DNA of 64,000 nt, from the NCBI GenBank assembly GCA_017853575.1, contig JAFMJI010000011.1, positions 220 through 64,219 of the forward strand, read 5' to 3'. The position numbers and the translations under genes were made by a program. Source of the DNA: Chitinophagaceae bacterium (GTDB lineage Bacteria > Bacteroidota > Bacteroidia > Chitinophagales > Chitinophagaceae). Shown one piece after another: positions 2,196 through 52,974 of this stretch. The notes beneath the pieces are model-generated. The model was not told the origin of the DNA, ran no database searches, and saw only the letters and a list, made by a program, of their open reading frames with translations. The stretch's first letter is position 1. Each line of letters begins with the position of its first letter.

Positions 2196-2600
2196 ATGAA
2201 TATTGAGAATACACAGAGTCAAATGAAGAAGGGGGTGCTGGAATTCTGCATCCTGTCTATCATTCGCAGGGGGGAAGCCTATCCGTCGGATATCATCGAA
2301 GAGATGAAAAAGGCCGACTTGAATATTTTGGAAGGAACCCTTTATCCATTATTAACAAGATTGAAGAATGCTGATTTACTCAGCTACCGTTGGGTGGAGA
2401 GTCCGAGTGGACCTCCAAGGAAATATTTTTCCCTGACTGATAAAGGTTTGGCTTTTTATGCAGAACTGGATGCAACTTGGAAAACAATGACTGCTGCTGT
2501 GGAGAGGGTGATAAATACAAAGGGAGAAGGCCTGCCTGCCGGTCAGGCAGGGACAAGGGACGAGGGACGAGAGGAACAGCCGTTCACGGTTGACAGTTAA
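2196..2600 (+). CDS. PadR-family transcriptional regulator with a repeat-derived C-terminal tail
   Basis: MKKGVLEFCIL, EGTLYPLLTRL, GPPRKYF motifs; directly upstream of a PspC-domain gene. Confidence 0.9.
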   Translation: MNIENTQSQMKKGVLEFCILSIIRRGEAYPSDIIEEMKKADLNILEGTLYPLLTRLKNADLLSYRWVESPSGPPRKYFSLTDKGLAFYAELDATWKTMTAAVERVINTKGEGLPAGQAGTRDEGREEQPFTVDS

Positions 2601-2623
2601 CTGTTAACCGTCAACTGTCAACC
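2521..2623 (+). repeat. Composite repeat: AGGGACA-type heptamers + CCTGCCTG-N5-CAGGCAGG palindrome + GTTGACA/GTTAACC heptamer palindrome
   Basis: CCTGCCTG 2531-2538 / CAGGCAGG 2544-2551; GGTTGACAGTT 2588-2598 / AACTGTCAACC 2613-2623. Confidence 0.85.
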
Positions 2624-2674
2624 GACAACAATGACAACAACTAAAACAACTAGAACCATTACAACTCAGATACA

Positions 2675-4819
2675 ATGAAAAAAGTCATCAACATCAATTT
2701 TCAAGGCAGGGTGATTCCAATTGAGGAACCGGCTTATGAGAATTTGAAAAAATATGTAGACAGTCTTCGTATTTATTTTTCAAATGAAGAAGGAAAGGAT
2801 GAAATCGTAAATGATATTGAGAACAGAATTGCAGAACTCTTTAATGAGAAGATGAAAGCAGGTGCTTCATTTATTACTGAAGAACATGTTGAAGCAATTG
2901 TTTCAAGTATTGGGAGACCAGAGCAGTTTGATGAAATTTCTATGAAAGAAGAAAGTTCATCTACTTCAAATAATTATACTGGTTATACAGATGCGCCTCG
3001 TGGCAATTTGTTCAGAAATTCCAAAGACAAATTAATTGGTGGAGTATGCAGTGGGATGGGGGCATATTTTAGAATTGATACTTCTATTATTCGCGTATTA
3101 TTTGTGCTAATTGCTTTCGGCTCATTTGGTACTATGTTTTTATTGTACATTATTCTTTGGGCAATTCTACCTTCAAAAGATATTGCTGAAACCGTGGTAA
3201 GAAGAAAACTGTATCGTGATCCTGATCATAAAGTAATTGGTGGTGTATTAAGTGGAATTGCACAATATTTTAATATTCAGGTATGGATACCAAGATTGAT
3301 TTTTTTATTGCCAGTGGTATTTGGAGTGTTTAAGAATTTAGAATGGTTTTTCTTTTTTCCATTGTTTAATTTATTCTCAGGTTCATTGGTGTTGACTTAT
3401 ATCATTCTCTGGGCAGTGATTCCGAAGGCTGTTACTGCATCAGAGAAAATGGAAATGAAAGGAGAGAAAGTTGATTTAGAATCCATCAAAAATAAAATTC
3501 AGGATGAGTTGCAAGGGGTGAAAAAAAATATTGATGCAAACAAAGATCAATGGAAACAAGACTTTAAAGAAAGAGCAACTTCATTTTCTCAAGAAGTGAA
3601 AGAAACTGCACGCCCTGCTGGCAGGGGATTTTTTCGATTCATCGCTGCTGTTTTCAAAGTATTTGTATTTTTCATCCTCGGGATTGTTGCATTGGTTTTA
3701 TTTGCTCTAGGTACCAGTGCCATCTTGGTCGGTTCTGCATTGATGCCTCTTAAATATTTTATAGTAAATAGTGTACTGGTTCAATTCTATGGTTGGGGCA
3801 CACTCTTGCTATTTATCATTGTTCCAATAGTTGCCTTGTTGGTGTATCTGATCAGAAAAATTATTGGTGTAAATTCAAGATCAGCTTGGTTGGGATGGAC
3901 GTTTAGTGGATTATGGATACTTGGGTGGTTTTCTGTGGTGATGTTGTTTGTTACCATTTCAAAAGAATTTAAAAGATCTGGCCAGGTGAAGGAGTCTGTT
4001 CAATTACAACAGCCTGTATCTGGTAAATTGAAATTAATGTTCAATAAAACAGCCGGGAAATTTTATTCTATTGATTTTGATTTCTTTGAAGACAACGATG
4101 ATGATTTGAATGCAAGAGTGGAGGGATTAAAATTATCCAAACAGGAAGACAGTTTGTTGTTGAATAACATGCGTATTCGTCTGGAAAAGAGTATGGATGA
4201 TAGTTTTCATGTGTATATTATTAAACGTGCCAGAGCATCCAGTACTTCAGATGCAGAATCATTTGCAGAGCAAATCAATTTCCCGGTTCAACAGGTAGAT
4301 AGTATACTGGACTTGCCATCGGGCTTTGTGGTGAATGATAAAACCAAGTTCAGAAATCAACAAGTTATTGTGTTGGTTGAAGTACCTGTTGGCAAAGAGA
4401 TTTATATTGATCGCTTAGCAAATAATTTCAATTGGTATAATATTCGCGGAGGAGTTAGGGGATTATCCGTTGACATTGATGATGATTATGATGAAGTTTC
4501 CTGGCGCCCTGGTCGTTGGTATAAAATGACGGAATCAGGTATTGAAAGAATTGGGGGTGAAGATGAAATAGAATTGAATACGGATGATTTGGAAGACAGG
4601 ATCGATCGTTTAAAAGATGAAATCAGAAAAAAAGAAATTGATTTGAAATCCATTGATATCAAAATCAAAGACAAGGATACAACAGTAGATATGCATATCA
4701 AATCAAATGCATCCAATCATAAAGCAGTATCCACTGAAATGGACGCTGAAGATCCTTCACGAAGTGCCAATGTTCAGATTTTATTCAGAGCACTCAATCT
4801 GTTGAAATTGGCGCGATGA
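2675..4819 (+). CDS. PspC-domain membrane protein (envelope stress response)
   Basis: [12 protein letters not shown]-terminus; two PspC repeats ([32 protein letters not shown]); several TM segments. Confidence 0.85.
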
Positions 4820-4826
4820 TTTGATT

Positions 4827-4834
4827 TATCTTTG
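4827..4834 (+). promoter_or_regulatory. -7 promoter box TATCTTTG, 4 nt before the gcvT ATG
   Basis: Matches the TAnnTTTG consensus. Confidence 0.65.
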
Positions 4835-4838
4835 CGTC

Positions 4839-5927
4839 ATGAAATCTACTCCATTTACCGCTCTGCATGAGGCTTTGGGTGCGAAGATGGCAGCCTTTGC
4901 CGGATACAATATGCCTATTTCCTATTCAGGCATCAACGATGAACATCATGCCGTTAGAAACAATGCTGGTGTGTTTGATGTAAGCCATATGGGAGAATTT
5001 ATTCTCAAAGGCGAACAGGCGTTAGATCTCATTCAAAGAGTAAGTACCAATGATGCATCTGTATTAGAAAATGGTCAGGCTCAATATACATGTATGACCA
5101 ATGAAAATGCAGGCATTGTAGATGATATGCTTGTATACTGCATTGAAAAAAATAAGGTATACATGTTGGTCGTGAATGCATCCAATATTGAAAAAGATTG
5201 GGAATGGATTCAGCAGTTCAATCAGGGAAATGTAGAAATGCACAATATTTCCGATAAAACTTGTTTGTTGGCAGTGCAGGGTCCGAACGCATGCAAGATG
5301 CTTCAACCGCTTACATCAATGAATATCGTTGATCTGAAATATTACACTTTTGTTAAAGGAGTTTTTGCAGGAGTTGAAAATGTATTGGTGAGTGCAACGG
5401 GTTATACAGGTGCCGGTGGTGTGGAAATATACTTTGAAAACAAAGGCGATGATGCCATCAACATTTGGAACGCCATTTTTGAAGCCGGTAAAGAAGCAGG
5501 CATCAAGCCAGTTGGATTAGGAGCAAGAGATACCCTTAGATTAGAAAAGGGATTTTGTTTGTACGGGAATGATATAGACGATTATACTACTCCATTAGAA
5601 GCAGGACTGGGATGGATCACAAAATTCAATAAAGAATTTACTTCATCTGCATTTCTGCAAAAGCAGAAGACATCAGGAGTTGAGAAGAAATTGGTTGGAT
5701 TTGAAATGATCGATAGAGGGATTCCCCGTCATGATTATTTCATACGTGATGAAGAAGGAAACATGATTGGAAAAGTTACTTCTGGAACACAATCACCCAC
5801 ATTGAATAAAGGTATTGGTATGGGGTATGTGTTGAGTGATCATGCAAAGCCAGGTTCAACGATCTATATAGATATCCGCGATAAACAGTTAAAGGCAGCT
5901 GTTGTAAAATTCCCATTTGTAAAATAG
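4839..5927 (+). CDS. gcvT: Glycine cleavage system aminomethyltransferase T
   Basis: [38 protein letters not shown]; ATG 4839 preferred over TTG 4821. Confidence 0.95.
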
Positions 5928-5935
5928 CATAGCGC

Positions 5936-6661
5936 GTGGCATCCCGTAATTTATATACATGTCTCTCTCCTGCCCTGCTCGATCTGTATGATATCAGCAA
6001 TTCAGTGGTTGTAATCATCGATGTATTGCGAGCAACTTCCACCATAGCAACTGCATTGCACAATGGAGCAGCATCGGTGATTCCTGTTGCAACTGTTCCT
6101 CAATGCATTGAATTGGGAGAAGCGGTCGGAGGAATTACAGCAGGTGAACGCGATGGCAAGGTTGCTGAAGGACTTAAATATGGTAATTCACCTTTTGAAT
6201 ATCCAAGATCATTCATTGAAAACAAAGTATTGGTGTTGACTACCACAAATGGCACCAAGCTTTTGCACATGGCGCTCGACAGGGGTGCACCTGAAATCAT
6301 TACCGGTTCTTTCCCAAATCTTTCCGCAGTTTGTGATCACTTGATCGCCTCAGATAAAGATGTATTGTTGGGTTGTGCTGCATGGAAAGACCGCGTCAAT
6401 TTGGAAGACAGTCTCTTTGCAGGAGCTGTTATCAATCGTGTCAAATCTCATTTTAATATTCTTTGTGATTCATCCAGTATTGCATCAACCATGTTTCAGG
6501 AGGCAGGAAGTGACCGTTTTGAATTCATGAAAAATAAAAATGCAACACACTATCATCGCTTGATGAAATATGGACTGGAAAAGGACATTCGTTATTGCCT
6601 GACAGAAGACGGCGCGAATGTTTTGCCTATTTTTAAAGGCGATCGATTGGTAATCTCCTAA
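5936..6661 (+). CDS. comB: 2-phosphosulfolactate phosphatase family protein
   Basis: VVIIDVLRATSTI, GER, GNSP, LTTTNGT, LED motifs. Confidence 0.85.
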   Translation: MASRNLYTCLSPALLDLYDISNSVVVIIDVLRATSTIATALHNGAASVIPVATVPQCIELGEAVGGITAGERDGKVAEGLKYGNSPFEYPRSFIENKVLVLTTTNGTKLLHMALDRGAPEIITGSFPNLSAVCDHLIASDKDVLLGCAAWKDRVNLEDSLFAGAVINRVKSHFNILCDSSSIASTMFQEAGSDRFEFMKNKNATHYHRLMKYGLEKDIRYCLTEDGANVLPIFKGDRLVIS

Positions 6662-6685
6662 TTCGTAAATTGTAAAAAAAATTTC

Positions 6686-8401
6686 ATGAGCAATGCTTCG
6701 CTGAGAAGTCAAGGCTGGTTCGGCCGTACAGGTAAAGACGGATTTATTTATCGTGCCTGGATGAAAAACCAAGGAATACCGGACGAAGAATTTCGTGGCA
6801 AACCCGTGATTGGTATTTGTAATACCTGGAGTGAATTGACACCTTGCAATGCGCATTTTCGTGAACTTGCAGAATCTGTAAAAAGAGGTGTAATTGCTGC
6901 AGGCGGCTTCCCACTTGAATTTCCTGTGATGTCTTTGGGTGAAACATTGATCAAACCCACAGCCATGCTCTATAGAAATCTTGCCAGTATGGATGTAGAA
7001 GAATCCATCAGAGCAAATCCGCTAGATGGTGTTGTATTGCTTTGTGGTTGTGATAAAACAACTCCATCGTTGGTCATGGGTGCATGTAGTGTGAACATTC
7101 CAACCATTGTTGTTTCAGGCGGGCCCATGTTAACAGGCAGATACGAAGGGAAAAATATTGGCACATCAGATATTTGGCGTTTTGCAGATGCAGTGAGAAG
7201 CGGCGACATGTCGCAAGAGCAACTCACTGTTGCAGAAGCATGCATGTGTAGAAGCAGGGGACATTGTGCTGTGATGGGGACAGCATCTACCATGGCTTGT
7301 ATGGTGGAATCATTGGGATTGACCTTGCCTTCGAATGCAGCAATCCCTGCAGCTGATAGCAGACGAAAAGTATTGGCTCAATATTCCGGAAGCAGAATCG
7401 TTGAAATGGTAAAAGAAGATTTGAAGCCTTCTGATATTTTGACGAGAGAAGCATTTGAAAATGCCATCAGAGTAAATGCTGCAATTGGAGGATCCACCAA
7501 TTTTGTTATTCATCTTTTGGCGATAGCACGAAGAATCGGAATTGAATTATCCTTGGAAGATTTTCATGTCAACTCTGAAGGCATTCCTCTGTTGGCAAAC
7601 CTTCAACCTTCCGGAGAATATTTCATGGAAGACTTTTATTATGCAGGAGGTTTACCTGTTGTGATGAAAGCCATGCATGATCGATTGCATGCAGACTGCA
7701 TTACTGCAAATGGGAAAACGTTGAAAGAAAATTATAAGAATGCAACATCCTTTAACGATGATGTCATCAGAGATCTTGGTAATCCATTTAAAAAAGAAAC
7801 AGGATTGGCTGTTCTCAGCGGAAACCTTTGTGAGAATGGTGCAGTTATCAAACCCAGTGCTGCGAGTCCCCATCTGATGCGGCATACAGGCCGTGCTGTT
7901 GTTTTTGAAAACATCGAAGACTATCACACACGCATCGATGATCCTTCATTGGAAATTGATGAAACCTCTGTAATGGTGCTTAAAAATGTGGGCCCCGTTG
8001 GTTATCCAGGCATGCCTGAAGTTGGCAACATGGGCATCCCAAAGAAATTATTGGAGAAAGGAATTAAAGACATGGTGAGGGTATCTGATGGAAGGATGAG
8101 TGGAACTGGATTTGGAACAGTTGTATTGCATGTTTCACCTGAGGCAGCAAAAGGCGGAACCTTGGCATTGGTTAAAACAGGTGATATGATTGCATTGGAT
8201 GTGTACGATCGAACTTTGCGTTTATTGGTTGATGACGAAGAGTTAGAAAAAAGAAGAGCAGCTTGGAAACCCACACATGTTGAAGCTACAAGGGGATACG
8301 TTCAATTGTATCAACAACATGTTGAGCAGGCGCATTTGGGAGCAGATATGGATTTTTTGAAAGGTTGCTCAGGAAGCAAGGTTACGCGAGACTCTCATTA
8401 A
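6686..8401 (+). CDS. IlvD/Edd-family dehydratase, sugar-acid (L-arabinonate dehydratase-like) clade
   Basis: LRSQGWFG...FIYRAWMKNQG, NTWSELTPCN, GCDKT, CAVMGTASTM, GGSTN, DGRMSGT; ends DSH as in AraC-type enzymes. Confidence 0.8.
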   Translation: MSNASLRSQGWFGRTGKDGFIYRAWMKNQGIPDEEFRGKPVIGICNTWSELTPCNAHFRELAESVKRGVIAAGGFPLEFPVMSLGETLIKPTAMLYRNLASMDVEESIRANPLDGVVLLCGCDKTTPSLVMGACSVNIPTIVVSGGPMLTGRYEGKNIGTSDIWRFADAVRSGDMSQEQLTVAEACMCRSRGHCAVMGTASTMACMVESLGLTLPSNAAIPAADSRRKVLAQYSGSRIVEMVKEDLKPSDILTREAFENAIRVNAAIGGSTNFVIHLLAIARRIGIELSLEDFHVNSEGIPLLANLQPSGEYFMEDFYYAGGLPVVMKAMHDRLHADCITANGKTLKENYKNATSFNDDVIRDLGNPFKKETGLAVLSGNLCENGAVIKPSAASPHLMRHTGRAVVFENIEDYHTRIDDPSLEIDETSVMVLKNVGPVGYPGMPEVGNMGIPKKLLEKGIKDMVRVSDGRMSGTGFGTVVLHVSPEAAKGGTLALVKTGDMIALDVYDRTLRLLVDDEELEKRRAAWKPTHVEATRGYVQLYQQHVEQAHLGADMDFLKGCSGSKVTRDSH

Positions 8402-8531
8402 AAGACAAATCTTTAAAGATAAGGGATTTATTGCTATTTATCGATAGTAAAACAGGTTGATTATTTTAATCAAATCTTTCATGTCATGCGAAATGTTTTC
8501 ATTTATTTTCGCAGATTAACCTGTCTGAATC

Positions 8532-12290: not shown

Positions 12291-12293
12291 TAC

Positions 12294-13460: not shown

Positions 13461-13469
13461 TGCATTCGT

Positions 13470-14204: not shown

Positions 14205-14250
14205 CTCCAAATGTATAGATAATCAGCGCAAAATTTTTTATATTCATTCT

Positions 14251-15354: not shown

Positions 15355-15390
15355 AATTTTTAAAAAGGCCCTTTACTAAGTTTTACTTGA

Positions 15391-16967: not shown

Positions 16968-16978
16968 TTACCAATATA

Positions 16979-37737: not shown

Positions 37738-37775
37738 ACGAAAATTCAATTCATTAACAAAACATACGTACGATC

Positions 37776-38819: not shown

Positions 38820-38842
38820 AGAGGTAAAGAAAAAAAATTACA

Positions 38843-40657: not shown

Positions 40658-40704
40658 TAATTTGATTATTCAATCGGTTGCACAACAACTGATTAAAAAA
40701 TATT

Positions 40705-42170: not shown

Positions 42171-42204
42171 CGCTGATTGAATTGAACCTTTAAAAAGATA
42201 AAGC

Positions 42205-42951: not shown

Positions 42952-42972
42952 TCAATCAAGTAATTCAAGTAT

Positions 42973-43368
42973 ATGGAACATTCAGTACAAGAAGTAAGCT
43001 TTCACCACGAGCCGGAAGGAGATGTTGTAAAGAAGATTATCAAGACAACCATCATACTTTCAGTCATCACAGTGATTGAATTGGGATTGGGTTTAACCAT
43101 GTATGCTTTCCCAATGGCTGCGGGTTTGAAGCTTTTTATCAAAGGTGTGATTGTGATTCTCTCGCTGCTTAAAGCATTTTACATTGTTGGTGTATTCATG
43201 CATTTGGGTGACGAGGTTAAGAACCTGATCATGACAATCATCGTTCCATTGTTGCTGTTCATTTGGTTCATAGCTGCCTTTTTGTGGGATGGAAATTCCT
43301 GGAAAGTGTTGAGGAATACATATCATCCTCAAGCAGTTGAGGTACATGAAGGCGGGGAGCATCATTAA
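42973..43368 (+). CDS. Cytochrome c oxidase subunit IV family
   Basis: LSVITVIE, KAFYIVGVFMHL; position in the cox operon. Confidence 0.75.
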   Translation: MEHSVQEVSFHHEPEGDVVKKIIKTTIILSVITVIELGLGLTMYAFPMAAGLKLFIKGVIVILSLLKAFYIVGVFMHLGDEVKNLIMTIIVPLLLFIWFIAAFLWDGNSWKVLRNTYHPQAVEVHEGGEHH

Positions 43369-43377
43369 TTAAGAGCT

Positions 43378-43404
43378 GTTCACGGTTAACCGTTAACAGT
43401 TAAC
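43378..43404. repeat. GTTCACG/GTTAACC/GTTAACA heptamer palindrome
   Basis: GTTCACG GTTAACC GTTAACA GTTAAC; perfect core ACGGTTAACCGT. Confidence 0.8.
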
Positions 43405-43412
43405 TATACATG

Positions 43413-43450
43413 AAAGCATCATAGGAATTGAACCCTTAGATGCTTTTTTT
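43413..43450 (+). terminator. Putative intrinsic terminator after the act-cox operon
   Basis: AAAGCATC...GATGCTTT stem followed by a T tract. Confidence 0.55.
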
Positions 43451-43467
43451 GTTTATATAAATATATC

Positions 43468-44166: not shown

Positions 44167-44177
44167 AAATAAATATT

Positions 44178-44720
44178 ATGTTAGAGGCCAGCATCCAAAA
44201 GAATGATAAAAGAGCCAATGTTCTGATTATTCTTTTTTCAATCATTGTTTTTGTTGCAGTTGTTTTTCTGTCAAAAATAAAATTGGAAGTTTCTCTCCCT
44301 TTTAATGTACACTTGTTTGCAAAAATAAATGCAGTGATAAATTCTGCTGTAACCTTTCTGCTGTTGGTGGGCTTGTTGTCTGTGAAAAGAGGCAGATATG
44401 CATTGCACAAAAAAGTAATGATGAGTGCAATGGTGCTTTCACTGTTGTTTTTGGTGTCTTATATCTGTCATCACCTTTTTTCTGAATCTACTTCATATGG
44501 TGGTAATGATACAGCAAAATATATTTATTATTTTATTTTGATTACACATATCTTTCTAGCGGGTATTATTCTACCATTCATTCTATATACTTCTTATCGT
44601 GCATTGATTGCGGAATGGCCTCAACACAAAAAGCTTGCAAAAATTACATGGCCGATTTGGTTGTATGTTTCTGTAACTGGGGTAGTGGTTTATTTGATGA
44701 TTAGTCCTTTTTACAGTTGA
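44178..44720 (+). CDS. DUF420 membrane protein
   Basis: HKKVM, FLVSYICHH, LITHI, HKKLAKITWPIWLYVSVTGV. Confidence 0.85.
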   Translation: MLEASIQKNDKRANVLIILFSIIVFVAVVFLSKIKLEVSLPFNVHLFAKINAVINSAVTFLLLVGLLSVKRGRYALHKKVMMSAMVLSLLFLVSYICHHLFSESTSYGGNDTAKYIYYFILITHIFLAGIILPFILYTSYRALIAEWPQHKKLAKITWPIWLYVSVTGVVVYLMISPFYS

Positions 44721-44757
44721 CGGTTGACAGTTAACGGTTAGCAGACAACTGTTACCG
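44714..44757. repeat. CAGTTGA/CGGTTGA heptamer array overlapping the DUF420 stop codon
   Basis: CAGTTGA CGGTTGA CAGTTAA CGGTTAG CAGACAA CTGTTAC. Confidence 0.8.
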
Positions 44758-44835
44758 GATGTACAAAGTAATTGTTGACGTGGTTGTCAGAGTTGTCTTT
44801 TTTTAATTTATCTGAAACCATTTATTTCTAAAATT

Positions 44836-45171
44836 TTGAAAGAAAGAAATTTTTTTGAAGACGTTTTTGAAGTTGTCCGCCTCATACCAAAAGGCAGGGT
44901 TACGAATTACGGCAGTATTGCAAAATATCTCGGATCAGGACTATCTTCTAGAATGGTTGGTTGGGCAATGAATGCATCTCATGGTGTAAAACCTAAAGTC
45001 CCAGCACAGCGTGTAGTAAATAGAAATGGGCTATTGACAGGAAAATTTCATTTTAAAACCCCTACTACCATGCAGGAATTATTAGCGAAAGAAGGTGTAA
45101 AAGTGAAGAATGATAAGGTGGTAAACTTCAAACAAGTCTTCTGGGATCCGAATGTAGAATTAGAATTTTAA
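44836..45171 (+). CDS. Alkyltransferase-like (ATL/MGMT-family) DNA-binding protein
   Basis: IPKGRVTNYGSIA, RMVGWAM, PAQRVV (no catalytic Cys); TTG start. Confidence 0.85.
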   Translation: MKERNFFEDVFEVVRLIPKGRVTNYGSIAKYLGSGLSSRMVGWAMNASHGVKPKVPAQRVVNRNGLLTGKFHFKTPTTMQELLAKEGVKVKNDKVVNFKQVFWDPNVELEF

Positions 45172-45190
45172 AGCGATTAACATACTATCA

Positions 45191-45280
45191 GTTAACCGTT
45201 GACAGTTAACTGTCAACGGTTAACCGTCAACTGTATTTTCTCTCCCCCTCACCCTTCTCTCTCCTCCCTTTCCCAGGAAC
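45191..45280. repeat. Composite repeat: 34-bp perfect palindrome plus purine heptamers on the minus strand
   Basis: GTTAACCGTTGACAGTTAACTGTCAACGGTTAAC (45191-45224) is self-complementary; adjacent AAGGGAG/GAGAGAG/AAGGGTG units. Confidence 0.9.
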
Positions 45281-45436
45281 ATTCACATGATCATACGGGC
45301 AATTCACACATTCATTCCCGCAGCATCTTCCATTTTCCAAATGGTATTTTGCGGTCAGCACCATGAACCCTCTTTCATTGTAGTAGAAGTCTTCCCCTTC
45401 AATCAGCTTTCTTTTCTTCTTCGGTTTCTCTTGCAT
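45227..45436 (-). CDS. DUF5522-like small Cys-rich protein
   Basis: EGEDFYY...YHLENGRCCGNECVNCPY; probable ATG 45436 lies inside the trmB 3' end. Confidence 0.7.
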   Translation of the reverse strand: MQEKPKKKRKLIEGEDFYYNERGFMVLTAKYHLENGRCCGNECVNCPYDHVNVPGKGRREKGEGERKYS

Positions 45437-46142
45437 CTTGCGTTGATTCAATTTCTCTGGTTCTATTTGCCAGTTCATCATCCAGATCAGTGGGGAGCTC
45501 TTTGTTGATCTTGAACTTGAGGTAATGAACTGTTTTGCTTTTTGCAATATCGAGAGATTCGTAGTGGGTCTTGATTTGAAGTTCTTTGTTTTGTGGAAGA
45601 TCTACGGCGATATTCGCACTATCTTCAAACAAATCCAAGTGATACATCTCAATCACCAATTTTGTGAATTGGTAGAGCACCGGCGAATCTGTCTTTAGAT
45701 GTATATAACCATCGGGCTTTAGAAATTGTTTATACTTCCTAAGAAAAACAGGATGAGTTAATCGCTTTGTTGATTTTGAAATTCTGAGTTGTGGGTCCGG
45801 GAACGGCAGCCAGATTTCATCAATTTCATTTTCATTGAAATATTTCTCAATCATTCCGATTTGGGTGCGCAGAAAAAAGGCATTCTTCAAGTTCCGCTCC
45901 AGCGCTTGTTTTGCACCTACCCAAATTCTGTTTCCTTTTACATCTACTCCGATATAATTTTTTTCTGGATACAGTGATGCGAGTGCGATGGTATATTCTC
46001 CTTTTCCGCAAGCGAGCTCAAGGGAAATGGGATGGTTGTTTTGAAAAAAGCCATTCCACTTTCCTCCAGTATTTTCGGGATATTCCAATACATGTTCAAA
46101 GGTTGCTATTTCAGCAAATCGCTTTAATTTCTTTTGACCCAT
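45399..46142 (-). CDS. trmB: tRNA (guanine-N7)-methyltransferase
   Basis: LELACGKGEY, GVDVKGNR, IWLPFPDPQ, HLKTD; -7 box TACCTTTG at 46153-46160. Confidence 0.93.
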   Translation of the reverse strand: MGQKKLKRFAEIATFEHVLEYPENTGGKWNGFFQNNHPISLELACGKGEYTIALASLYPEKNYIGVDVKGNRIWVGAKQALERNLKNAFFLRTQIGMIEKYFNENEIDEIWLPFPDPQLRISKSTKRLTHPVFLRKYKQFLKPDGYIHLKTDSPVLYQFTKLVIEMYHLDLFEDSANIAVDLPQNKELQIKTHYESLDIAKSKTVHYLKFKINKELPTDLDDELANRTREIESTQDARETEEEKKAD

Positions 46143-46172
46143 AGAATTGGCGCAAAGGTAATGAGGGCGTGA

Positions 46173-47393: not shown

Positions 47394-47400
47394 GAATAAA

Positions 47401-47637
47401 CTATTGCATGGCCTTTGATAAACCATCAACGGCTTGGCGGATGGTTTTGATTCCTTGTAATTCAGTATTTGGGATGTTTACATTGAATTCATCTTCCAGA
47501 TCAGCTATCAATTCGATAGAGTCGAGTGAATCCAATCCCAGTTCTTCAAAACTGCTGTCAATTGAAATGAGTTCTTTGTTGATTCCTTTTTTGGAAGAAA
47601 GCAACGTAGCCATTTTTTCAAATACTGCTTCGCTCAT
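47401..47637 (-). CDS. Acyl carrier protein
   Basis: 78 aa acidic protein with phosphopantetheine site LGLDSLD. Confidence 0.9.
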   Translation of the reverse strand: MSEAVFEKMATLLSSKKGINKELISIDSSFEELGLDSLDSIELIADLEDEFNVNIPNTELQGIKTIRQAVDGLSKAMQ

Positions 47638-47829
47638 GTGTAATGGTTTGTGGTAAAATTATGCAATTTGAATGATCTGTTGAAAAACACGTCCATACTT
47701 TGTTATAATCCTTCTATTTCATGTCTTTTCTCACTTTTTAGCGGTTTTAGCTGAGGTTAGTTTTACATCATCATAGAAAATAGAATGAAAAAGACACCCG
47801 CCTATTTAATTACCTTAAAAAACAAGAAC

Positions 47830-48099
47830 ATGAAGAAAATGATTTTGATGATGGCAATCATGCTGACAGGGTTCATCAGTTTTGCCAATGGGAAGGAGGC
47901 CAGGTTGACCTCAAGAGCATTCAACCAGATTCACACAAATTTTGACTGTACAGTTACATTGAAGGGATATGTATCTGTTGGGGCCGCTGGCTTTGAAGTT
48001 ACCTGTTCTGCAACAGCCAGCACCTGCGAGTTGGCTACACAGCAAGCTTCTACTTGCTTATCTGCTGCAATTAAAACAATTAAGAAAACTTATTTATAA
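47830..48099 (+). CDS. Small secreted Cys-rich peptide (89 aa, about 70 aa mature)
   Basis: Sec-type signal MKKMILMMAIMLTGFISFA; Cys at 40, 59, 66, 76; A-rich translation initiation region. Confidence 0.75.
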   Translation: MKKMILMMAIMLTGFISFANGKEARLTSRAFNQIHTNFDCTVTLKGYVSVGAAGFEVTCSATASTCELATQQASTCLSAAIKTIKKTYL

Positions 48100-48118
48100 A
48101 AAACCGGCGGGTGTTTAC

Positions 48119-48883
48119 ATGAAGCGTATGAAAAATATATTATTTGTTTTATTAACGATTGGAACCATAACTGTTCAGGCACAGGATCATATTGAGTCGC
48201 AAGTTGTTCATTACAATATTGTTTATAATCATTTGTTTGATCGGGAAAAAGATTTCAAACAGTATGATGCAATCTTATACATGCAAGGAGATCGATCATT
48301 GTTTACCATGAAACGCAATGATAAAATTGAAGATGCCTATCAAACAAATTATTTCGATGCGAGTCCGGATAGTTTGTTTACAGTCTTCAAAGATTTTGAA
48401 TCCAATTCACTGTTGTTTGATTTTTATCATTTGCAACAGGGTAATATAATATATGCAGATACACTGCATCCAATGGAGTGGAAGTTGGAAAGTGAGGAGA
48501 CAATAGTGGGCGGCATACCATGCAAGAAAGCGACGGTTAGATTTAAAGGGAGGGATTATGTTGCTTGGTATGCCCCTTCCATCCCCATTTCGAATGGGCC
48601 TTGGAAATTAGGTGGACTTCCCGGTTTGATTTTAGAGGCATATGATGAGAGACGGGAATGGCATGCGGTATATAATAACATGAAAGATATTGCGTTTATT
48701 GATTTTAGCTATTATGAAAGGCTTGTCAATAAAGGAGTATCGAGTTTTACAGATTTTATCAATGACTTAAAGATTTTACTCAAAAGAATGAGTGGCTCAT
48801 TGTCGAATAAAGGCAGTGATGATTGTTTAACCTGTATGAGCACATCACTTGTTACCATGTATATGTGGGAAAAGATTGATTGA
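48119..48883 (+). CDS. GLPGLI family protein
   Basis: Signal peptide; CKKATVRFKGRDYVAWYAPSIPISNGPWKLGGLPGLILEA. Confidence 0.92.
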   Translation: MKRMKNILFVLLTIGTITVQAQDHIESQVVHYNIVYNHLFDREKDFKQYDAILYMQGDRSLFTMKRNDKIEDAYQTNYFDASPDSLFTVFKDFESNSLLFDFYHLQQGNIIYADTLHPMEWKLESEETIVGGIPCKKATVRFKGRDYVAWYAPSIPISNGPWKLGGLPGLILEAYDERREWHAVYNNMKDIAFIDFSYYERLVNKGVSSFTDFINDLKILLKRMSGSLSNKGSDDCLTCMSTSLVTMYMWEKID

Positions 48884-51168
48884 TGCGTTTGATTTTATTG
48901 GCAGTTACCATCACGTTTCAAATGGCGTTGAAAGCTCAACCAAATCATGCAGAGCTGCCTGTGATCAAAAATATTCCGGAAATCCTTGTGAAACCTACAT
49001 TGGGCGTAATGAGGATTTCACGGGATACCATTGAATACAAGGTAGGCAATACGCTGAGTCCGGAGATTGTTAAACTGGAAGATTTATTCAGAAATTTTCT
49101 AGGGTTTCATATCACAGATAACGGACGAATATTTTATAATGGGAAAGAGGTATCTTTTTTATTGATTGATGGAGATCCAGTTTCAATTTCAGATTACAAT
49201 ATTATTTCTCAACATCTCAATGCAAACATGTTTAGTAGCATTGAAGTGATACAGCAATATCAATCAAATAGATTTATTGGTGTTTCACCTACTAAAAATG
49301 AGCTTGCCATCAATCTAAAAATGAAGAAGGAGTTTCGAGGGAGATTCAATACGGATTTAACAGTACAGGTGGCATCTCCAAAGGGGTTATATGGGATGAT
49401 TGATGCGAATCGAATTGTAGGAAAAGTCAAGTCGATTGCGGTAGTTGAGAAAAATATATATGGGAACCAATGGGAAATGAGAAGTACTTCAAATGTAAAC
49501 AATCAAGAGTATAAAGTTCCTTTAATCTCTTTATTACAGCATCCATTTTTACTCCAAACCAATTTATTTAAGCAATCCTATCTATTTAATAATGTCGGGA
49601 ATCATATAAAAATGTTAGATGCATTCAAATTGAGGTCCTACGCGACATTTCGGGTTGAGGCTGGAAAAGAAAAAGTGTATCTCGATTTTAACGAGCATCA
49701 GCAAAACAATTATTTTATCGGGGTAAATAATATTTTGAATGAAAAACGAAATTCGAAATTGAATCTATCGAATGAAAACAGTTATCTGAAACTGATGTTT
49801 GATCATGATCATTTAAAAAGCAATCGAGGAGAGTATAAACTATATATTAATTATCAAGCATTAACACAGCAATTACAAGATTCAATTGAGCGTGGTATGA
49901 AACGCTTCAATTATTCATGGGATGACCAGCGAAGAAAATTGGTTATGTTTCAAGGTCTTGAAAAATACTTGATCGGGAAGAAGTATTTATTGGAGATAGG
50001 GTTTCAGTACGGTTTCAATAATTTATACAGACTGATGAAACAAGATGATATCGAAAAAAATGAGTTCGATATTTTACAGCAATATTTATCAACTGAGATT
50101 GGGTTGTCTTTTCAAAAAGTAAAACATTCTTTTCATATTGGGCACCGCTTTGTAAATGAGCAGCGAGAGATTTCCACTCAGTTTTTGAAACAATATGTAT
50201 TTGTTGAGCACCAATTTCGTTTGAATAAAAAAATGTTGTTTAACACTGATTTGTCAGTAGGAAATGGGAAAATATCAACTAAGGGTAACCAAATTTCAAA
50301 GACTATTTTTCTATTGGAGGGCGAAATGATTTATAAGAAATCCATGTTTAATCATACTTATTTAAAATATTTCCTTAGTCAGCGAATACCAATAATTGAA
50401 GCATGGATGGTAAACCCATTATTACATTTATCCGGTTATATACAATATCAATATTTGCCTGATCGGTTTTCTTTGATAAAGAATGTTGAATTGGGGAAGT
50501 CTTATCAGCATTTGTTTCGTGGATTTGGGTTTAATTATTCAGTGATTGCCAATTATGTAAAAAATGATGCGTTTCATTCAATAGGATTCCATTCGTTTAA
50601 CATTGTCGATACTATTTGTTATGGGAATAATTCTCGAAATATTCAATGTAGGGCCGAAGCAGATCAATTTATATTTCCACTAAAAATTCGGCTCTCCACC
50701 TCTTTTCAATTTACTTCTGCCAGAATGATTCAGGGTATAATGGGTCAATCAACTCCAATGCTATTGAATCTTCATTCGATTAGACTGGCTTGTAAAAGTT
50801 CCTGGGAAAAATCATTTCAATGGGAGTACTCTGGTAGTCTTCAACGAAATTATACAAGAGCTGGAGGTAAAGGGGCGAATGTTAATTTCTTGATTCATCA
50901 ATTGAATGCAAAATATAAACTAGGTAGAAAACTTTATACTGCTGTTCAAACAAATTATATCGATTATCAACAGCAAAAGAATTATATGTTCTTGGATGTA
51001 TTGCTTCAATTTAGGTCTTCTGAGAAATCTAGTCTGAATATATCTATGATGAATGCATCAAATGTTCAAAGCTTTGAACAATCATTTGTTTCGGGCTATG
51101 GACTGCAATCTATTTCAACTCCCTTGGCAGGAAGAAAGTTTCAAATTGAATTCAGAAGGAGTTTTTGA
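48883..51168 (+). CDS. TonB-dependent-receptor-like outer-membrane beta-barrel (GLPGLI-associated type)
   Basis: Signal peptide; plug-like DTIEY...LEDLFRNFLGFHITDNGRIFYNGKEVSFLLIDG; alternating beta pattern; C-terminal FQIEFRRSF; TGATG overlap with the upstream stop. Confidence 0.7.
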   Translation: MRLILLAVTITFQMALKAQPNHAELPVIKNIPEILVKPTLGVMRISRDTIEYKVGNTLSPEIVKLEDLFRNFLGFHITDNGRIFYNGKEVSFLLIDGDPVSISDYNIISQHLNANMFSSIEVIQQYQSNRFIGVSPTKNELAINLKMKKEFRGRFNTDLTVQVASPKGLYGMIDANRIVGKVKSIAVVEKNIYGNQWEMRSTSNVNNQEYKVPLISLLQHPFLLQTNLFKQSYLFNNVGNHIKMLDAFKLRSYATFRVEAGKEKVYLDFNEHQQNNYFIGVNNILNEKRNSKLNLSNENSYLKLMFDHDHLKSNRGEYKLYINYQALTQQLQDSIERGMKRFNYSWDDQRRKLVMFQGLEKYLIGKKYLLEIGFQYGFNNLYRLMKQDDIEKNEFDILQQYLSTEIGLSFQKVKHSFHIGHRFVNEQREISTQFLKQYVFVEHQFRLNKKMLFNTDLSVGNGKISTKGNQISKTIFLLEGEMIYKKSMFNHTYLKYFLSQRIPIIEAWMVNPLLHLSGYIQYQYLPDRFSLIKNVELGKSYQHLFRGFGFNYSVIANYVKNDAFHSIGFHSFNIVDTICYGNNSRNIQCRAEADQFIFPLKIRLSTSFQFTSARMIQGIMGQSTPMLLNLHSIRLACKSSWEKSFQWEYSGSLQRNYTRAGGKGANVNFLIHQLNAKYKLGRKLYTAVQTNYIDYQQQKNYMFLDVLLQFRSSEKSSLNISMMNASNVQSFEQSFVSGYGLQSISTPLAGRKFQIEFRRSF

Positions 51169-52974
51169 TTATTCGATGTTTAAAACTTTTTGATCGCTTT
51201 CATTTCCTGCTCTATCGATAGCGCTGATGACCACTTTTTTCAATTCAACTTTTTTCCCATCTATAAATTTAAATTTATTGATAGCAGTTTTCGTTTCAGT
51301 TTTAGGCAGTATTTGATAATCCCATTGGTTTTCAAAATTTGTATAGAGTACATACTGGAATACATCATCATCTTTTGCTTTCCAATTTATTTCAATGGAT
51401 GCTCCAAGTTTTTTGATACTGCTCAAAGGAGCATTTGGTGGAATTGAGTCGAGCCATTTGCTTGCAGGGATCAGTGCGGGATTTTTATAGGGGCCTTCTA
51501 TCAGGTTTTTGGTAAGGGATGGATTTTTGGTGAGCATAGAAATATTCCAGTGAACCACTCCATTGCTTTTTGGAATCAGTGTTCTTCCAAATTCAATTTC
51601 CTGTGTGATTTCTGTATTGTCGGCTCTGCCATACTTGTCAGTATTGATATTGATACCTGGCCATAGATGTCGTTGTTGGGTATTTTCTTCCTGCCACCAA
51701 CCGAGCAGTACTGGGAAGCTTTGTTCTGTTTTACTGGTTGGCCAGTAAAGTTGGGGAGTGAAATAGTCTATCCATCCTTTGTTCAACCAAAGTTTTGCAT
51801 CGGCATATAATTTTTCATATTGATCAAATCCTTTGATGGTAGATGGAAATCCTGGTCGCCATATACCAAAAGGACTGATTCCAAATTTCACGAAGGGCTT
51901 GGATGATTTGATTTCGTTGTATACTCTTTCAATGAGGTTATTGACAGAAGATCTTCGCCAATCACCTTTTGAAAGTGTCCCGTTATTACTTACATATTGC
52001 TGATATGATTTTTCATCTGGGAAATCTTGGTCGCCATTATAGGATGGGTAAGGATAAAAATAATCATCGAAATGAATTCCATCGATATCATATCTGTTTA
52101 CAATATCCATCACTACTTTAGTTGTGAGGTCTTGTGTTTCTTTTTTGGAAGGGTCCATCCAGTAAAATCCTTCTTTGAGTTTATATACCATTTCAGGATT
52201 TTTTTTGACGATGGATTCATTGCTGATATCTTTTGAGCTTGTATGGTGAGCGCGATAGGGATTCAGCCATGCGTGCAGTTCCATTCCTCTTTTATGTGAT
52301 TCATCGATCCAGAATTGAAGAGGATCATAGTAAGGGTATGGTGCTTGATTTTGTTTTCCTGTTAGAAAATAAGACCAAGGTTCGAAGTTGCTTTTATAGA
52401 GTGCATCAGCTTGTGGGCGAACTTGAAAGATAACTGCATTAAAATTATTTTTTTGGAGATAGTTGAGCAGTTGAATGGCTTCTTCTTTTTGTTCTGCAGT
52501 TGAAAGTCCAGGTTTACTTGGCCAATTGATGTTAGCAACTGTTGCTATCCATGCAGCGCGGAATTCGCGGGGAACGATGTTTAGTTGACTGTTGACGGTT
52601 GGCGGTTGACGGTTGGCGGTTGACGGTTGACTGTTGTCAGTTGACTGTTCGCGGTTATCCGTTGGAGCTGTGTAAGTTGTAGGTTGTAAGTTGTAGGTTG
52701 AGTCTTTTGTGGGGAGTGGGTTCTGCGTTGGGAGTTGATGGTTGACAGTTGAATCAGTTGTGGCTTTTGGGTTCTGGGTTGCGGGTTGGGAGTTAACAGT
52801 TGACGGTTGACGGTTAACTGTCAACTGTGAACTGTCAACTGTATTTCCCTTCTCTACCACTTCTCTCCTGGTTGTAAACGGCGAATGTTTAGCCGTAAAT
52901 TCTTTAACAGCTGTACAGCTGCTGATCAGGGTTATGAAGAAAATGTATTGGATAATCTTTTCACGCAGGTTCAT
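51169..52974 (-). CDS. Glycoside hydrolase-like family 10 (YddW/DigH-like) lipoprotein with repeat-derived linker
   Basis: Lipobox SSC; EFRAAWIATVANINWPS, FQVRP, HAWLNPYR, DGIHFDDYFYPY; -7 box TAATTTTG at 52989-52996. Confidence 0.88.
   Translation of the reverse strand: MNLREKIIQYIFFITLISSCTAVKEFTAKHSPFTTRREVVEKGNTVDSSQLTVNRQPSTVNSQPATQNPKATTDSTVNHQLPTQNPLPTKDSTYNLQPTTYTAPTDNREQSTDNSQPSTANRQPPTVNSQLNIVPREFRAAWIATVANINWPSKPGLSTAEQKEEAIQLLNYLQKNNFNAVIFQVRPQADALYKSNFEPWSYFLTGKQNQAPYPYYDPLQFWIDESHKRGMELHAWLNPYRAHHTSSKDISNESIVKKNPEMVYKLKEGFYWMDPSKKETQDLTTKVVMDIVNRYDIDGIHFDDYFYPYPSYNGDQDFPDEKSYQQYVSNNGTLSKGDWRRSSVNNLIERVYNEIKSSKPFVKFGISPFGIWRPGFPSTIKGFDQYEKLYADAKLWLNKGWIDYFTPQLYWPTSKTEQSFPVLLGWWQEENTQQRHLWPGININTDKYGRADNTEITQEIEFGRTLIPKSNGVVHWNISMLTKNPSLTKNLIEGPYKNPALIPASKWLDSIPPNAPLSSIKKLGASIEINWKAKDDDVFQYVLYTNFENQWDYQILPKTETKTAINKFKFIDGKKVELKKVVISAIDRAGNESDQKVLNIE
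52584..52870. repeat. Intragenic heptamer mosaic (GTTGACG, GTTGTAG, GGGTTGC types)
   Basis: 12 consecutive GTTnnnn units at 52584-52667, further arrays up to 52870. Confidence 0.9.

Follow-up and report, generated by a model that had tools for sequence, protein, structure and literature searches.

Results

Heptamer arrays at the gene ends of the window

The window, a 64,000-nucleotide stretch of a freshwater Chitinophagaceae genome, carries arrays of GTTRACN heptamers and of other short tandem units in and around the ends of its genes (Table 1; genes are longest-ORF calls, hence the distances to start and stop codons are approximate). All heptamer arrays of the original prediction were found in their places, together with its perfect 34-bp hairpin and both of the junctions it had described as shared, AAATACAGTTGAC, which is common to the two minus-strand copies, and GTTCACGGTT, common to 2585 and 43380. 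The purine heptamers expected beside the GTTRACN units are clear AGGGACR-type arrays at 687-731 and 2549-2571 and degenerate on the minus strand at 45236-45280 and 52843-52870, two tracts for which TRF made no call. The GTARGTT units at 52671-52700 and the ACAACNNNN 9-mers at 2620-2672 are additions to that inventory. A search of the window against Rfam gave no match.

Table 1. Arrays of the window, and the two PF05635 loci of the same genome outside it
Feature	Position	Strand	Remarks
AGGGACR heptamer array, 6.4 units	687..731	+	Canonical G4 motif, G-rich strand is the sense strand; 4 nt past the stop of helicase-like ORF 3..683, 47 nt ahead of gene 778..2100
Purine module: AAAGGGAGAAGG, then hairpin GGCCTGCCTGCCGGTCAGGCAGG (2529-2551), then AGGGACR units (2549-2571)	2521..2575	+	Translated C-terminal tail of PadR-like ORF 2196..2600
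GTTRACN palindrome type I, GTTGAC-GTTAAC-GTTAAC-GTCAAC-GTCAAC	2582..2629	+	RNA fold -21.5 kcal/mol, z -5.4
ACAACNNNN 9-mer array, A/C-rich	2620..2672	+	Reaches the start codon (2675) of the PspC-domain gene
One GTTCACG, then three GTTAACN units	43378..43404	+	Behind the stop of ORF 42973..43368 and ahead of a conserved intrinsic terminator (~43413-43449)
GTTGACN/GTTAACN array, some units degenerate	44713..44757	+	Followed by a stem with T-run, end near 44806
Palindrome, perfect 34-bp core 45191-45224	45189..45234	.	Fills the convergent gap between ORFs 44836..45171 (+) and 45227..45547 (-); RNA folds -23.7 (plus strand) and -27.3 kcal/mol (minus strand), z ~-6.8
AGGGAGR-type purine tract, degenerate	45236..45280	-	C-terminal tail GKGRREKGEGERKYS of ORF 45227..45547; linked to the neighbouring palindrome via AAATACA
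Direct array, ~9-11 GTTGACN/GTTGGCG units (plus-strand spelling)	52584..52664	-	Stop-free GTCAAC units on the minus strand; part of the GHL10 lipoprotein linker (ORF 51169..52974)
GTAAGTT/GTAGGTT heptamer array, 4.3 units	52671..52700	-	Within the GHL10 lipoprotein linker
Purine tract, AAATACA, GTTRAC palindrome (minus-strand order)	52790..52870	-	In-frame in the GHL10 linker; GTTRACN units 52790-52842, degenerate purine tract 52843-52870; RNA fold -26.1 kcal/mol, z -5.2
PF05635 gene C4:16190-16501	C4:16070-16665		Between AGGGAC and CCCCTGT arrays
PF05635 gene C3:5208-5528	C3:5084-5600		Between GTTGTAA and AACTTAC arrays

Three genes of the window terminate inside an array: the stop of the PadR-like ORF (TAA 2598-2600) comes from the second unit of the adjoining palindrome, the array at 44713..44757 provides that of the DUF420-like ORF 44178..44720 (TGA 44718-44720), and the palindrome at 45189..45234 gives the minus-strand ORF its TGA. 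GTTGAC contains TGA and GTTAAC contains TAA, and with a 7-nt period all three frames are covered; any reading frame is therefore closed within about 20 nt, and an array can extend over a stop codon harmlessly. The opposite-strand units are without stops, so that their co-option as a protein linker becomes possible, as in the GHL10 lipoprotein, where in the 52790..52870 locus GTTCAC stands at the place at which a unit would create an in-frame TGA. ORF-internal arrays were always found in the stop-free orientation. The independent metagenome contig Ga0075473_10013627 is identical to the window across 45120-45320, hence the palindrome in the convergent gap is not an assembly artefact.

Abundance and unit families in the genome

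The host genome is small (2.3 Mb) and 93% coding. The genome-wide enrichment foreseen for the repeats was borne out: 101 GTTRACN arrays have at least two units and 69 have at least three, against none in a Markov-5 simulated genome. The 101 loci of the family add up to 4.6 kb on 24 contigs, among which they are strongly clustered (chi-square P = 5e-34). TRF returned 231 rows at period 7, whereas periods 6 and 8 gave 78 and 103, respectively; the enrichment of 7-mers over the Markov-5 expectation was uninformative for tandem repeats, because 6-mers rise along with the 7-mers.

Beside GTTRACN, the units comprise AGGGACR, GTARGTT and 9-mers with a GTTR core. The AGGGACR arrays are G3-N4 repeats which also occur as inverted pairs, and they hold 19 of the 26 canonical G4 motifs of the genome (counted at the motif level). 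A 26-nt hairpin module, GGCCTGCCTGCCGGNNAGGCAGGGAC, is nested in AGGGAC arrays at no fewer than eight loci with unrelated flanks, and the ATACA junction likewise recurs at eight or more loci amid unrelated flanks. The conservation of the module and of the junction at many loci implies some copying between loci; plain slippage does not account for it.

Each unit contains a palindromic or nearly palindromic hexamer. GTTAAC is the HpaI site, and the HincII site GTYRAC covers GTTGAC and GTCAAC. The arrays could in principle be protein-binding sites at the DNA level, either periodic sites of a nucleoid protein, for which three units would correspond to two helical turns, or targets of restriction-modification; CARTTGN arrays of other Bacteroidota families have palindromic cores too. 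We consider such a role very improbable, since AGGGACR or GTAAGTT units stand in for GTTRAC at the same sites, an exchange that speaks against a protein recognising one specific DNA sequence. Outside the arrays GTTAAC, GTTGAC and GTCGAC showed observed-to-expected ratios of 1.26, 1.07 and 1.07, respectively; the hexamers are not depleted there, thus no sign of restriction avoidance was seen.

Position relative to the genes

A bias relative to stop codons had been proposed, and it proved to be strong and directed toward the 3' ends of genes. Of 50 GTTRAC loci, 44 lie between genes or overlap with the end of one. The 42 intergenic ones are distributed over 14 convergent, 26 tandem and 2 divergent gaps, where the intergenic base pairs would predict 5.2, 22.1 and 14.7 (chi-square P = 2e-6), and in 8-9 convergent gaps the palindrome is the sole occupant. 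Purine arrays lie in the sense rather than the antisense orientation (28:7); in tandem gene pairs no strand asymmetry of GTTGAC arrays with respect to transcription was observed (5 vs 5). By itself, the positional bias could reflect purifying selection, given that 93% of the genome is coding.

Folding, polarity and the terminator slot

Most of the arrays fold, in accordance with the hairpin formation proposed originally. The mean folding energy was -17 kcal/mol compared with -6.5 kcal/mol for shuffled sequences, 33 of the 50 loci reached -15 kcal/mol or lower, and the z values of the window examples were between -5 and -7. The spacer (N) positions of mirrored units were complementary in 24 of 47 pairs, where 28% would be expected. 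The palindromes are also polar: the GTTGAC-first order prevails by 28:3 in the host genome (our own count) and by 11:0 elsewhere, and G exceeds C in the 5' arm in 29 of 30 pairs of the host genome, in 25 of 25 informative pairs of cyanobacterial loci and in all nine PF05635 brackets (see below).

At one convergent site the palindrome stands in place of an ancestral bidirectional terminator. In the IscA-SecDF gap seven relatives carry a terminator made of A-tract, GC-stem and T-tract, and the relatives designated G003 and G024 have the GTTRAC palindrome only. U-tracts behind the stems are weak (TGTATT in 8 of 100 flanks), and a simple terminator scan did not call the arrays, a scan that likewise misses the conserved terminator at 43413-43449. 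Two arrays of the window have a canonical terminator behind them and are therefore dispensable for termination at these sites, and a palindrome of -26 kcal/mol inside the GHL10 coding region means that it is no efficient terminator if the GHL10 gene is expressed.

Inheritance of the sites among relatives

The nearest relatives of the window genes are found in freshwater Chitinophagaceae MAGs. Within the genus the arrays were detected in 5 of 25 species, all in one subclade, and any match at all was present in 11 of 401 Bacteroidota genomes. The host genome, G024 and G003 have arrays at common sites with different unit orders: the array at 43378..43404 has orthologues in both relatives and none in 8 other species of the genus, and that at 44713..44757 has one in G024. 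When 24 sites were compared with relatives of 76-84% identity, most had an array in both genomes, often of another unit family. Unit number, unit order and even the unit family thus shift fast at a given site, and the site itself is inherited across species. Since occupied sites are common to species that have diverged by about 20%, most arrays are old residents changing in place, not recent transpositions. Our metagenome scan, which found a single, identical contig, gave no population polymorphism.

The original prediction had envisaged a self-propagating system with a RAYT/TnpA(REP)-like gene. Part of this survives, as some copying between loci is implied, but we found no target duplications, and no RAYT-like gene in the host genome or its repeat-rich relatives: PF01797 (Y1_Tnp) is absent from the host genome, G003 and G024, in a search that scored in six control genomes and two repeat-free relatives. 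The proposed comparison with sister genomes did yield empty sites in outgroups, but no target-site duplication distinguishes filled from empty sites. Short intergenic palindromes, with junctions and a 26-nt module recurring amid unrelated flanks, would suit REP/REPIN-like or MITE-like elements mobilised by a transposase, be it a RAYT or a different one; yet array lengths step by 7 nt, the occupied sites are orthologous across species, and target-site duplications are lacking, and we take this reading to be largely refuted. The number of 7-nt units in the arms varies and every locus has a length of its own, contrary to the fixed palindrome of ~20-25 nt of a REP; as for a MITE, the filled sites have no flanking duplication, and the array replaces the stop region at one site and the terminator at another. 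Writing by a retroelement or a telomerase-like enzyme was rejected as well, the reverse transcriptase family PF00078 being absent from the host genome, G003, G024 and the further genome G198. No recent gene transfer from cyanobacteria was visible either: the host proteome matched ~700 kb of cyanobacterial loci at 59% amino-acid identity or less, and all matches were housekeeping genes.

It is possible, although we would not favour it, that the arrays are a functionless by-product, neutral or slightly selfish slippage DNA which survives only where it is harmless, that is, behind genes and, within genes, in the stop-free orientation. The restriction of ORF-internal arrays to that orientation agrees with such an origin, and so do the patchy presence (5 of 25 species, 11 of 401 genomes), the relatives that do without arrays at the same sites, the clustering among contigs and the quick replacement of unit families. 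Against it, units have remained near consensus at sites of species about 20% diverged, though the adjacent spacer DNA has diverged; the palindrome is the sole structure remaining where relatives have a terminator; and the palindromic build with its G-first polarity is too regular for drift.

Arrays bracketing PF05635 genes

The window contains no PF05635 gene; the genome has two, and both are bracketed by inverted heptamer arrays (Table 1). The same arrangement was seen at 7-8 of 8 PF05635 loci of relatives and around a copy on a Nostoc carneum plasmid, and a copy on a high-GC contig labelled Gemmatimonadetes is flanked by GTTRAC units. At 33 Bacteroidota PF05635 loci, the density of period-7 arrays is 2.8 per kb up to 170 bp from the gene ends and 0.30 per kb in the remainder of the same loci. 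Inverted array pairs that enclose no gene, with spacers of 50-110 bp, exist as well. These observations would suit a cross-phylum cassette in which a heptamer-hairpin shell encloses an Avd-like four-helix-bundle PF05635 cargo, whose protein would bind or maintain the hairpins, the gene-less palindromes being empty or non-autonomous derivatives. We hold this to be unlikely. Of 401 Bacteroidota genomes, 323 contain PF05635, and its copy number was rejected as a predictor of GTTRAC abundance, with which it shows no correlation (none in G003, one in G024, two in the repeat-free G010); a reverse transcriptase partner is absent, and the gene might merely insert into pre-existing hairpins. No nuclease or recombinase activity is known for the family, and the PF05635 proteins of 23S rRNA intervening sequences are homologous to Avd of diversity-generating retroelements (PMC10053308). 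Those intervening sequences likewise place a small PF05635 gene within a long inverted-repeat stem, but they reside in rRNA, whereas the cassettes described here lie between protein-coding genes, have heptamer arrays as stems and are without a reverse transcriptase.

Discussion

Judged by sequence, the arrays are an already known kind of element, the STRR (short tandemly repeated repetitive) class, in a new host. STRRs are heptanucleotides of heterocystous cyanobacteria, reportedly described by Mazel et al. in 1990 as STRR1 (CCCCAGT), STRR2 (TTGGTCA) and STRR3 (CAACAGT). GTTRACN is a rotation or complement of the last, and GTCAACA a rotation of CAACAGT. Both the cyanobacterial repeats and the Chitinophagaceae arrays are dispersed intergenic tandem 7-nt units. 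The likeness to STRRs had been noticed from the outset, and it turned out to be closer than claimed: the identical palindrome is present in many Nostocales and Oscillatoriales. The exact 34-nt pattern of five units, GTTGACN-GTTRACN-GTTAACN-GTYAACN-GTCAAC, has at least 114 matching stretches, mostly from these two orders, and was found in Nostoc, Tolypothrix, Calothrix, Komarekiella, Scytonema, Microcoleus, Tychonema and Moorena. The cyanobacterial palindromes also lie directly past stop codons, and period-7 arrays dominate those loci. The differences concern the host, originally a filamentous or heterocystous cyanobacterium and here a member of the Bacteroidota, and the companion units. AGGGACR does no more than resemble STRR1, and neither it nor GTAAGTT was found in the sampled cyanobacterial loci, which hold GGGGATT, GGGGCAT, AATGACT and others; the ATACA junction and the 26-nt module belong to the present Chitinophagaceae lineage alone. 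By its placement in heptamer arrays, on which the comparison is based, this module may be likened to the small dispersed repeats (SDR) of Nostoc punctiforme, which according to Elhai et al. 2008 reportedly insert into heptamer arrays, but its sequence and host differ.

Heptamer repeats have been encountered in other lineages too. Direct repeats of TAACTGA are known from Beggiatoaceae, Cyanobacteria and five Bacteroidetes, and other heptamers from Gramella, Aequorivita and Elizabethkingia, with contigs breaking within the repeats (MacGregor 2015, PMC4679880). Their patchy distribution across phyla, including Bacteroidetes, is like that of our arrays, but they are mostly direct and just upstream of start codons, whereas the present ones are mostly palindromic and behind stop codons, and no TAACTGA tandems of two or more units occur here. 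G-quadruplex-forming heptamers are represented by GGGAATC in Xanthomonas, where they also form inverted pairs, and by GGGGA(C/T)T in Nostoc PCC 7120 (Rehm et al. 2015, PMC4692102). AGGGACR, considered here as a sequence motif alone, shares the G3-tract spacing and the inverted pairs with them, but its unit is different, and GTTRAC palindromes as well as a nested hairpin module are attached to it. REP/BIME elements and the REPINs with their RAYT transposases (Bertels & Rainey 2011, PMC3116915) are also short intergenic 3'-end palindromes and possible mRNA 3' stabilisers or terminators, but they have a fixed sequence of ~20-25 nt and a RAYT, where our arrays have variable tandem heptamer arms and none.

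It was demonstrated that the arrays lie in transcribed spacers behind genes, fold into stable hairpins and are inherited at the same sites. On balance, and by a narrow preference, we regard them as STRR-type heptanucleotide palindromes whose evolution proceeds at fixed sites through slippage and fold-back and which are tolerated or used as 3'-end RNA hairpins. From the observed patterns, slipped-strand mispairing would lengthen and shorten the arrays, and fold-back (template-switch) copying of the G/T-rich strand would make them palindromic; this strand is capable of self-pairing by G.T wobble, and the nearly constant 5' position of the G-rich arm would follow from that. Small composite pieces might occasionally be copied between loci by recombination, without a dedicated transposase. 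In the mRNA the palindromes would act as 3'-end hairpins, either weak or bidirectional terminators or exonuclease blocks, and here and there they may have moved into the position of a classical terminator.

It is rather doubtful, in our opinion, that a PF05635 cassette moves between genomes and has brought GTTRACN-like units from cyanobacteria into Chitinophagaceae and Gemmatimonadota, with a protein that recognises or maintains the hairpins and with gene-less palindromes as its non-autonomous offspring. If such a cross-phylum cassette did exist, the universal G-rich 5' arm would be a signature of its mechanism and not of chance slippage.

Heptamer repeats have been unexplained in cyanobacteria since 1990, and the same units with the same palindromic build are now found at about 100 loci of a small, streamlined Bacteroidota genome. 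Close relatives free of arrays allow filled sites to be compared one by one with empty, classical-terminator or cassette sites, and three regularities can be tested: arrays occupy a slot that separates stop codon from terminator, the 5' arm is rich in G, and PF05635 genes are linked with arrays. In this organism the arrays rewrite gene ends, to which they contribute stop codons and C-terminal tails, and they also form a lipoprotein linker of 107 residues.

Results

Arrays in the window and in the genome

The heptamer arrays are real and non-random. Every GTTRACN array that the original prediction had placed in the window was recovered by direct reading and by Tandem Repeats Finder. The common junctions AAATACAGTTGAC and GTTCACGGTT were present as well, and so was the perfect 34-bp palindrome, which is no assembly artefact since 45120-45320 is identical in an independently assembled metagenome contig. 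The accompanying purine heptamers stood in part: AGGGACR units were found at two places, and the other two proved to be degenerate tracts. GTARGTT units and A/C-rich 9-mers had been missing from the list.

Features of the heptamer repeats (window positions unless a contig, C, of the same assembly is named)
Feature	Position	Remark
GTTRACN units	2582-2629	direct reading and Tandem Repeats Finder
GTTRACN units	43378-43404	direct reading and Tandem Repeats Finder
GTTRACN units	44713-44757	direct reading and Tandem Repeats Finder
GTTRACN units	45189-45234	direct reading and Tandem Repeats Finder
GTTRACN units	52584-52664	direct reading and Tandem Repeats Finder
GTTRACN units	52790-52842	direct reading and Tandem Repeats Finder
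AGGGACR units	687-731	
AGGGACR units	2549-2571	
Degenerate purine tract	45236-45280	minus strand
Degenerate purine tract	52843-52870	minus strand
GTARGTT units	52671-52700	newly listed
A/C-rich 9-mers ACAACNNNN	2620-2672	newly listed
Perfect 34-bp palindrome	45191-45224	
PadR stop TAA	2598-2600	inside heptamer unit
DUF420-like gene stop TGA	44718-44720	inside heptamer unit
ORF	45227..45547	minus strand; terminates inside heptamer unit
GHL10 lipoprotein gene	51169..52974	minus strand
26-nt module GGCCTGCCTGCCGGNNAGGCAGGGAC	2529-2554; C8:1065, C15:258003 and 258031, C20:8554, C29:35510, C39:1419, C14:8	
PF05635 gene with bracketing arrays	C4:16070-16665	outside window
PF05635 gene with bracketing arrays	C3:5084-5600	outside window

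The enrichment extends over the whole genome of the host, a freshwater Chitinophagaceae MAG (2.32 Mb, 40 contigs, 38% G+C) in which the window corresponds to C7:220-64219. Tandem Repeats Finder returned 231 rows of period 7 against 78 of period 6 and 103 of period 8, and GTTRACN arrays of at least two, three and four units numbered 101, 69 and 35, as against none in a simulated Markov-5 genome. The three families GTTRACN, AGGGACR and GTARGTT together account for about 101 loci, or 4.6 kb of sequence, which are spread highly unevenly among the contigs (chi-square P = 5e-34), with 15 loci in the 43 kb of C29 and none in the 380 kb of C14, C22 and C36 combined. With few exceptions the contigs are alike in composition, thus mixed bins do not explain the uneven spread. 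C9 (5.9 kb, 65% G+C) is probably a contaminant in the bin, C31 (49% G+C, almost no ORFs) may be an rRNA fragment, and C26 has an odd tetranucleotide profile and a composition unlike the rest of the genome.

Anatomy and folding

GTTRAC loci are compact palindromes, and the order GTTGAC..GTTAAC..GTCAAC was kept in 28 of the 31 loci of this genome with both arm types (hand count from the locus list; binomial P ~5e-6 by our own arithmetic) and by 11:0 among unselected arrays of other genomes. The precedence of GTTGAC over GTCAAC is the GTTRAC case of a wider pattern, an almost invariably G-rich 5' arm: G exceeded C there in 29/30 inverted pairs genome-wide, in 25/25 informative pairs of cyanobacterial loci and in 9/9 brackets around PF05635 genes (loci L091-L204 and L213-L241 in addition to the host genome). 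The AGGGACR and GTARGTT arrays mostly form inverted pairs 10-110 bp apart, several of them surrounding a classical stem with a T-run, and the purine arrays supply 19 of the 26 canonical G4 motifs of the genome. One composite recurs in which, along the reading direction of the upstream gene, the gene 3' end is followed by (AGGGACR)n, ATACA, a GTTRAC palindrome, A/C-rich 9-mers and the next start codon. A conserved GC-rich hairpin module of 26 nt, GGCCTGCCTGCCGGNNAGGCAGGGAC, lies inside AGGGAC arrays at at least eight loci with unrelated left flanks, which resembles Nostoc punctiforme, where small dispersed repeats insert into heptamer arrays.

The hairpins that had been proposed fold stably, averaging -17 kcal/mol where shuffled sequences give -6.5 kcal/mol; examples in the window reached -21 to -27 kcal/mol (z -5 to -7). 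Of 47 mirrored pairs of spacer (N) positions in the two arms, 24 were complementary, where 28% was expected. Rfam gave no family match within the window.

Position relative to genes

According to crude longest-ORF gene calls made for this analysis, the 42 intergenic GTTRAC loci with a called gene on both sides showed the suspected bias towards gene ends: 14 lay in convergent gaps (5.2 expected by intergenic bp), 26 in tandem gaps (22.1) and 2 in divergent gaps (14.7; chi-square P = 2e-6). Many arrays start 0-11 nt from a stop codon and nine contain one; purine arrays were in sense orientation by 28:7. Array units end genes because GTTGAC and GTTAAC contain TGA and TAA and period 7 runs through three frames. 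The opposite strand of the GTTRAC units is free of stop codons, and all arrays within ORFs are read in that orientation. This is clearest in the GHL10 lipoprotein, whose lipobox and catalytic domain are joined by a repeat-encoded linker of some 107 residues (many of them S, T, Q, P or N), where orthologues have only 10-30 residues; the sole unit that would yield an in-frame TGA is GTTCAC instead. Arrays can provide genes with stop codons, tails and, in one case, a linker. The closest GHL10 orthologue in our collection (L011) has a PST repeat with a 9-bp unit at the linker place. A GHL10 protein encoded on a contig labelled Bordetella parapertussis MAG (L013, CALRSN020000067.1) is 61% identical to that of the window over the best matching segment and stands among Chitinophagaceae matches, so the label looks wrong.

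Relatives

Four-unit GTTRAC arrays occurred in 5 of 25 species of the genus, namely G024 (98), G003 (60), the host genome G000 (44), G016 (6) and G009 (5). G003, G024 and G016 are the closest to the host by SCO1 protein identity, G009 being the exception (74% over a partial match). Of the 16 other families sampled in the order, one had such arrays (G028, five matches; a reversed control pattern matched there too), and in an even phylum-wide sample 11/401 genomes had any match, with many only in the host and G198. A heptamer with another palindromic core, CARTTGN (CAATTG/CAGTTG), forms many arrays in other Bacteroidota families (e.g. G153, G376, G061, G175), hence blooms of near-palindromic-hexamer heptamers recur within the phylum. 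In G013 and G010 (L003, L007), species of the genus without GTTRAC arrays, AGGGAAT heptamers stand right after the DUF420 stop, orthologous to window 44720-44836; purine heptamers therefore reach further across the genus than GTTRAC units do.

Three window sites (coxIV-like/SCO1, DUF420/MGMT-like and MGMT-like/DUF5522-like) carry arrays in both the host and G024, with a larger composite in G003 at one of them. Unit order varies by species, and in another eight species these spacers are short and plain. At coxIV-like/SCO1 the array follows the stop codon and precedes a terminator that the whole genus shares. When 24 sites were compared with 18 loci from relatives (76-84% nucleotide identity), most had an array in both genomes, often of a different family (GTTRAC, GTAAGTT, AGGGAC or 9-mers), that is, sites persist and contents turn over. 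No target-site duplications were visible at the sites compared between the host and its relatives. It was demonstrated that the arrays sit behind genes, are inherited at fixed sites and are quickly remodelled.

Mobility enzymes and PF05635

Neither a RAYT nor a reverse transcriptase serves the arrays. The RAYT/TnpA(REP)-like gene suspected in the original prediction was not found: PF01797 (Y1/RAYT) was absent from G000, G003 and G024, while control genomes scored, and PF00078 reverse transcriptase was absent from these three and G198. GTTAAC, GTTGAC and GTCGAC showed no depletion outside the arrays in the host, which gives no hint of a restriction system that targets these hexamers.

The association of heptamer arrays with PF05635 genes is real. 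Their products are small four-helix bundles that belong to the 23S rRNA intervening-sequence family and share homology with DGR Avd (PMC10053308). Both PF05635 genes of the host lie between inverted heptamer arrays, as do 7-8 of 8 PF05635 loci of relatives, GTTRAC-free species included, and a copy on a Nostoc carneum plasmid; on a high-GC contig labelled Gemmatimonadetes, GTTRAC units flank a further copy (PF05635 loci beyond the host: L205-L241, L110 and L139). In 33 Bacteroidota loci, the density of period-7 arrays within 170 bp of PF05635 gene ends was nine times that elsewhere in the same loci. However, PF05635 occurs in 323/401 Bacteroidota genomes, in copy numbers that do not track GTTRAC abundance, which counts against a causal role.

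The convergent gap between IscA and SecDF has three states: in seven relatives a bidirectional terminator (A-tract, GC stem, T-tract), in G003 and G024 a GTTRAC palindrome only (gap 50-60 bp), and in the host a PF05635 gene with an AGGGAC array on one side and an inverted CCCCTGT array on the other. No other comparison speaks as strongly for the ability of the palindromes to replace a terminator.

Discussion

The hairpin-forming heptamer palindromes belong to an already known kind of repeat, the STRR class, of which they are new members. The supposed likeness to cyanobacterial STRR was borne out by scanning one genome per species for GTTGACN-GTTRACN-GTTAACN-GTYAACN-GTCAAC, which yielded at least 114 stretches; among the matches listed most came from Nostoc, Tolypothrix, Calothrix, Komarekiella, Scytonema, Microcoleus, Tychonema and Moorena, and the others from MAGs of freshwater Bacteroidota and a few contigs labelled otherwise. 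At least one of the latter, L126 (JBJTIX010000149.1, labelled Opitutia), has 80% nucleotide identity to host contigs and is probably mis-binned. The cyanobacterial palindromes likewise stand directly after stop codons amid other heptamers. AGGGACR and GTAAGTT were found in the Chitinophagaceae loci only. GTCAACA is a rotation of STRR3, reported as CAACAGT by Mazel and co-workers in 1990.

The literature agrees that such heptamer repeats are known and unexplained. TAACTGA heptamers were described in Beggiatoaceae, Cyanobacteria and five Bacteroidetes, with further heptamers mentioned for Gramella, Aequorivita and Elizabethkingia (MacGregor 2015, PMC4679880), and G4-forming GGGAATC and GGGGA(C/T)T repeats, inverted pairs included, have a role that remains to be found (Rehm et al. 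2015, PMC4692102).

The arrays probably grow by slippage, and palindromes probably arise when the G/T-rich strand folds back and is copied; as an idea only, the self-pairing of GTTGAC via two G.T wobbles, of which GTCAAC is incapable, would explain the G-first rule. In RNA the arrays may act as 3'-end hairpins. A strong terminator role is opposed by the weak U-tracts, the canonical terminators downstream of two window arrays and the palindrome within the GHL10 ORF, and purely neutral arrays are a serious rival to any role in RNA. The value of the system lies in a small set of comparable genomes and in three testable regularities, namely the placement of arrays after the stop codon and ahead of the terminator, the G-richness of the 5' arm and the bracketing of PF05635 genes.
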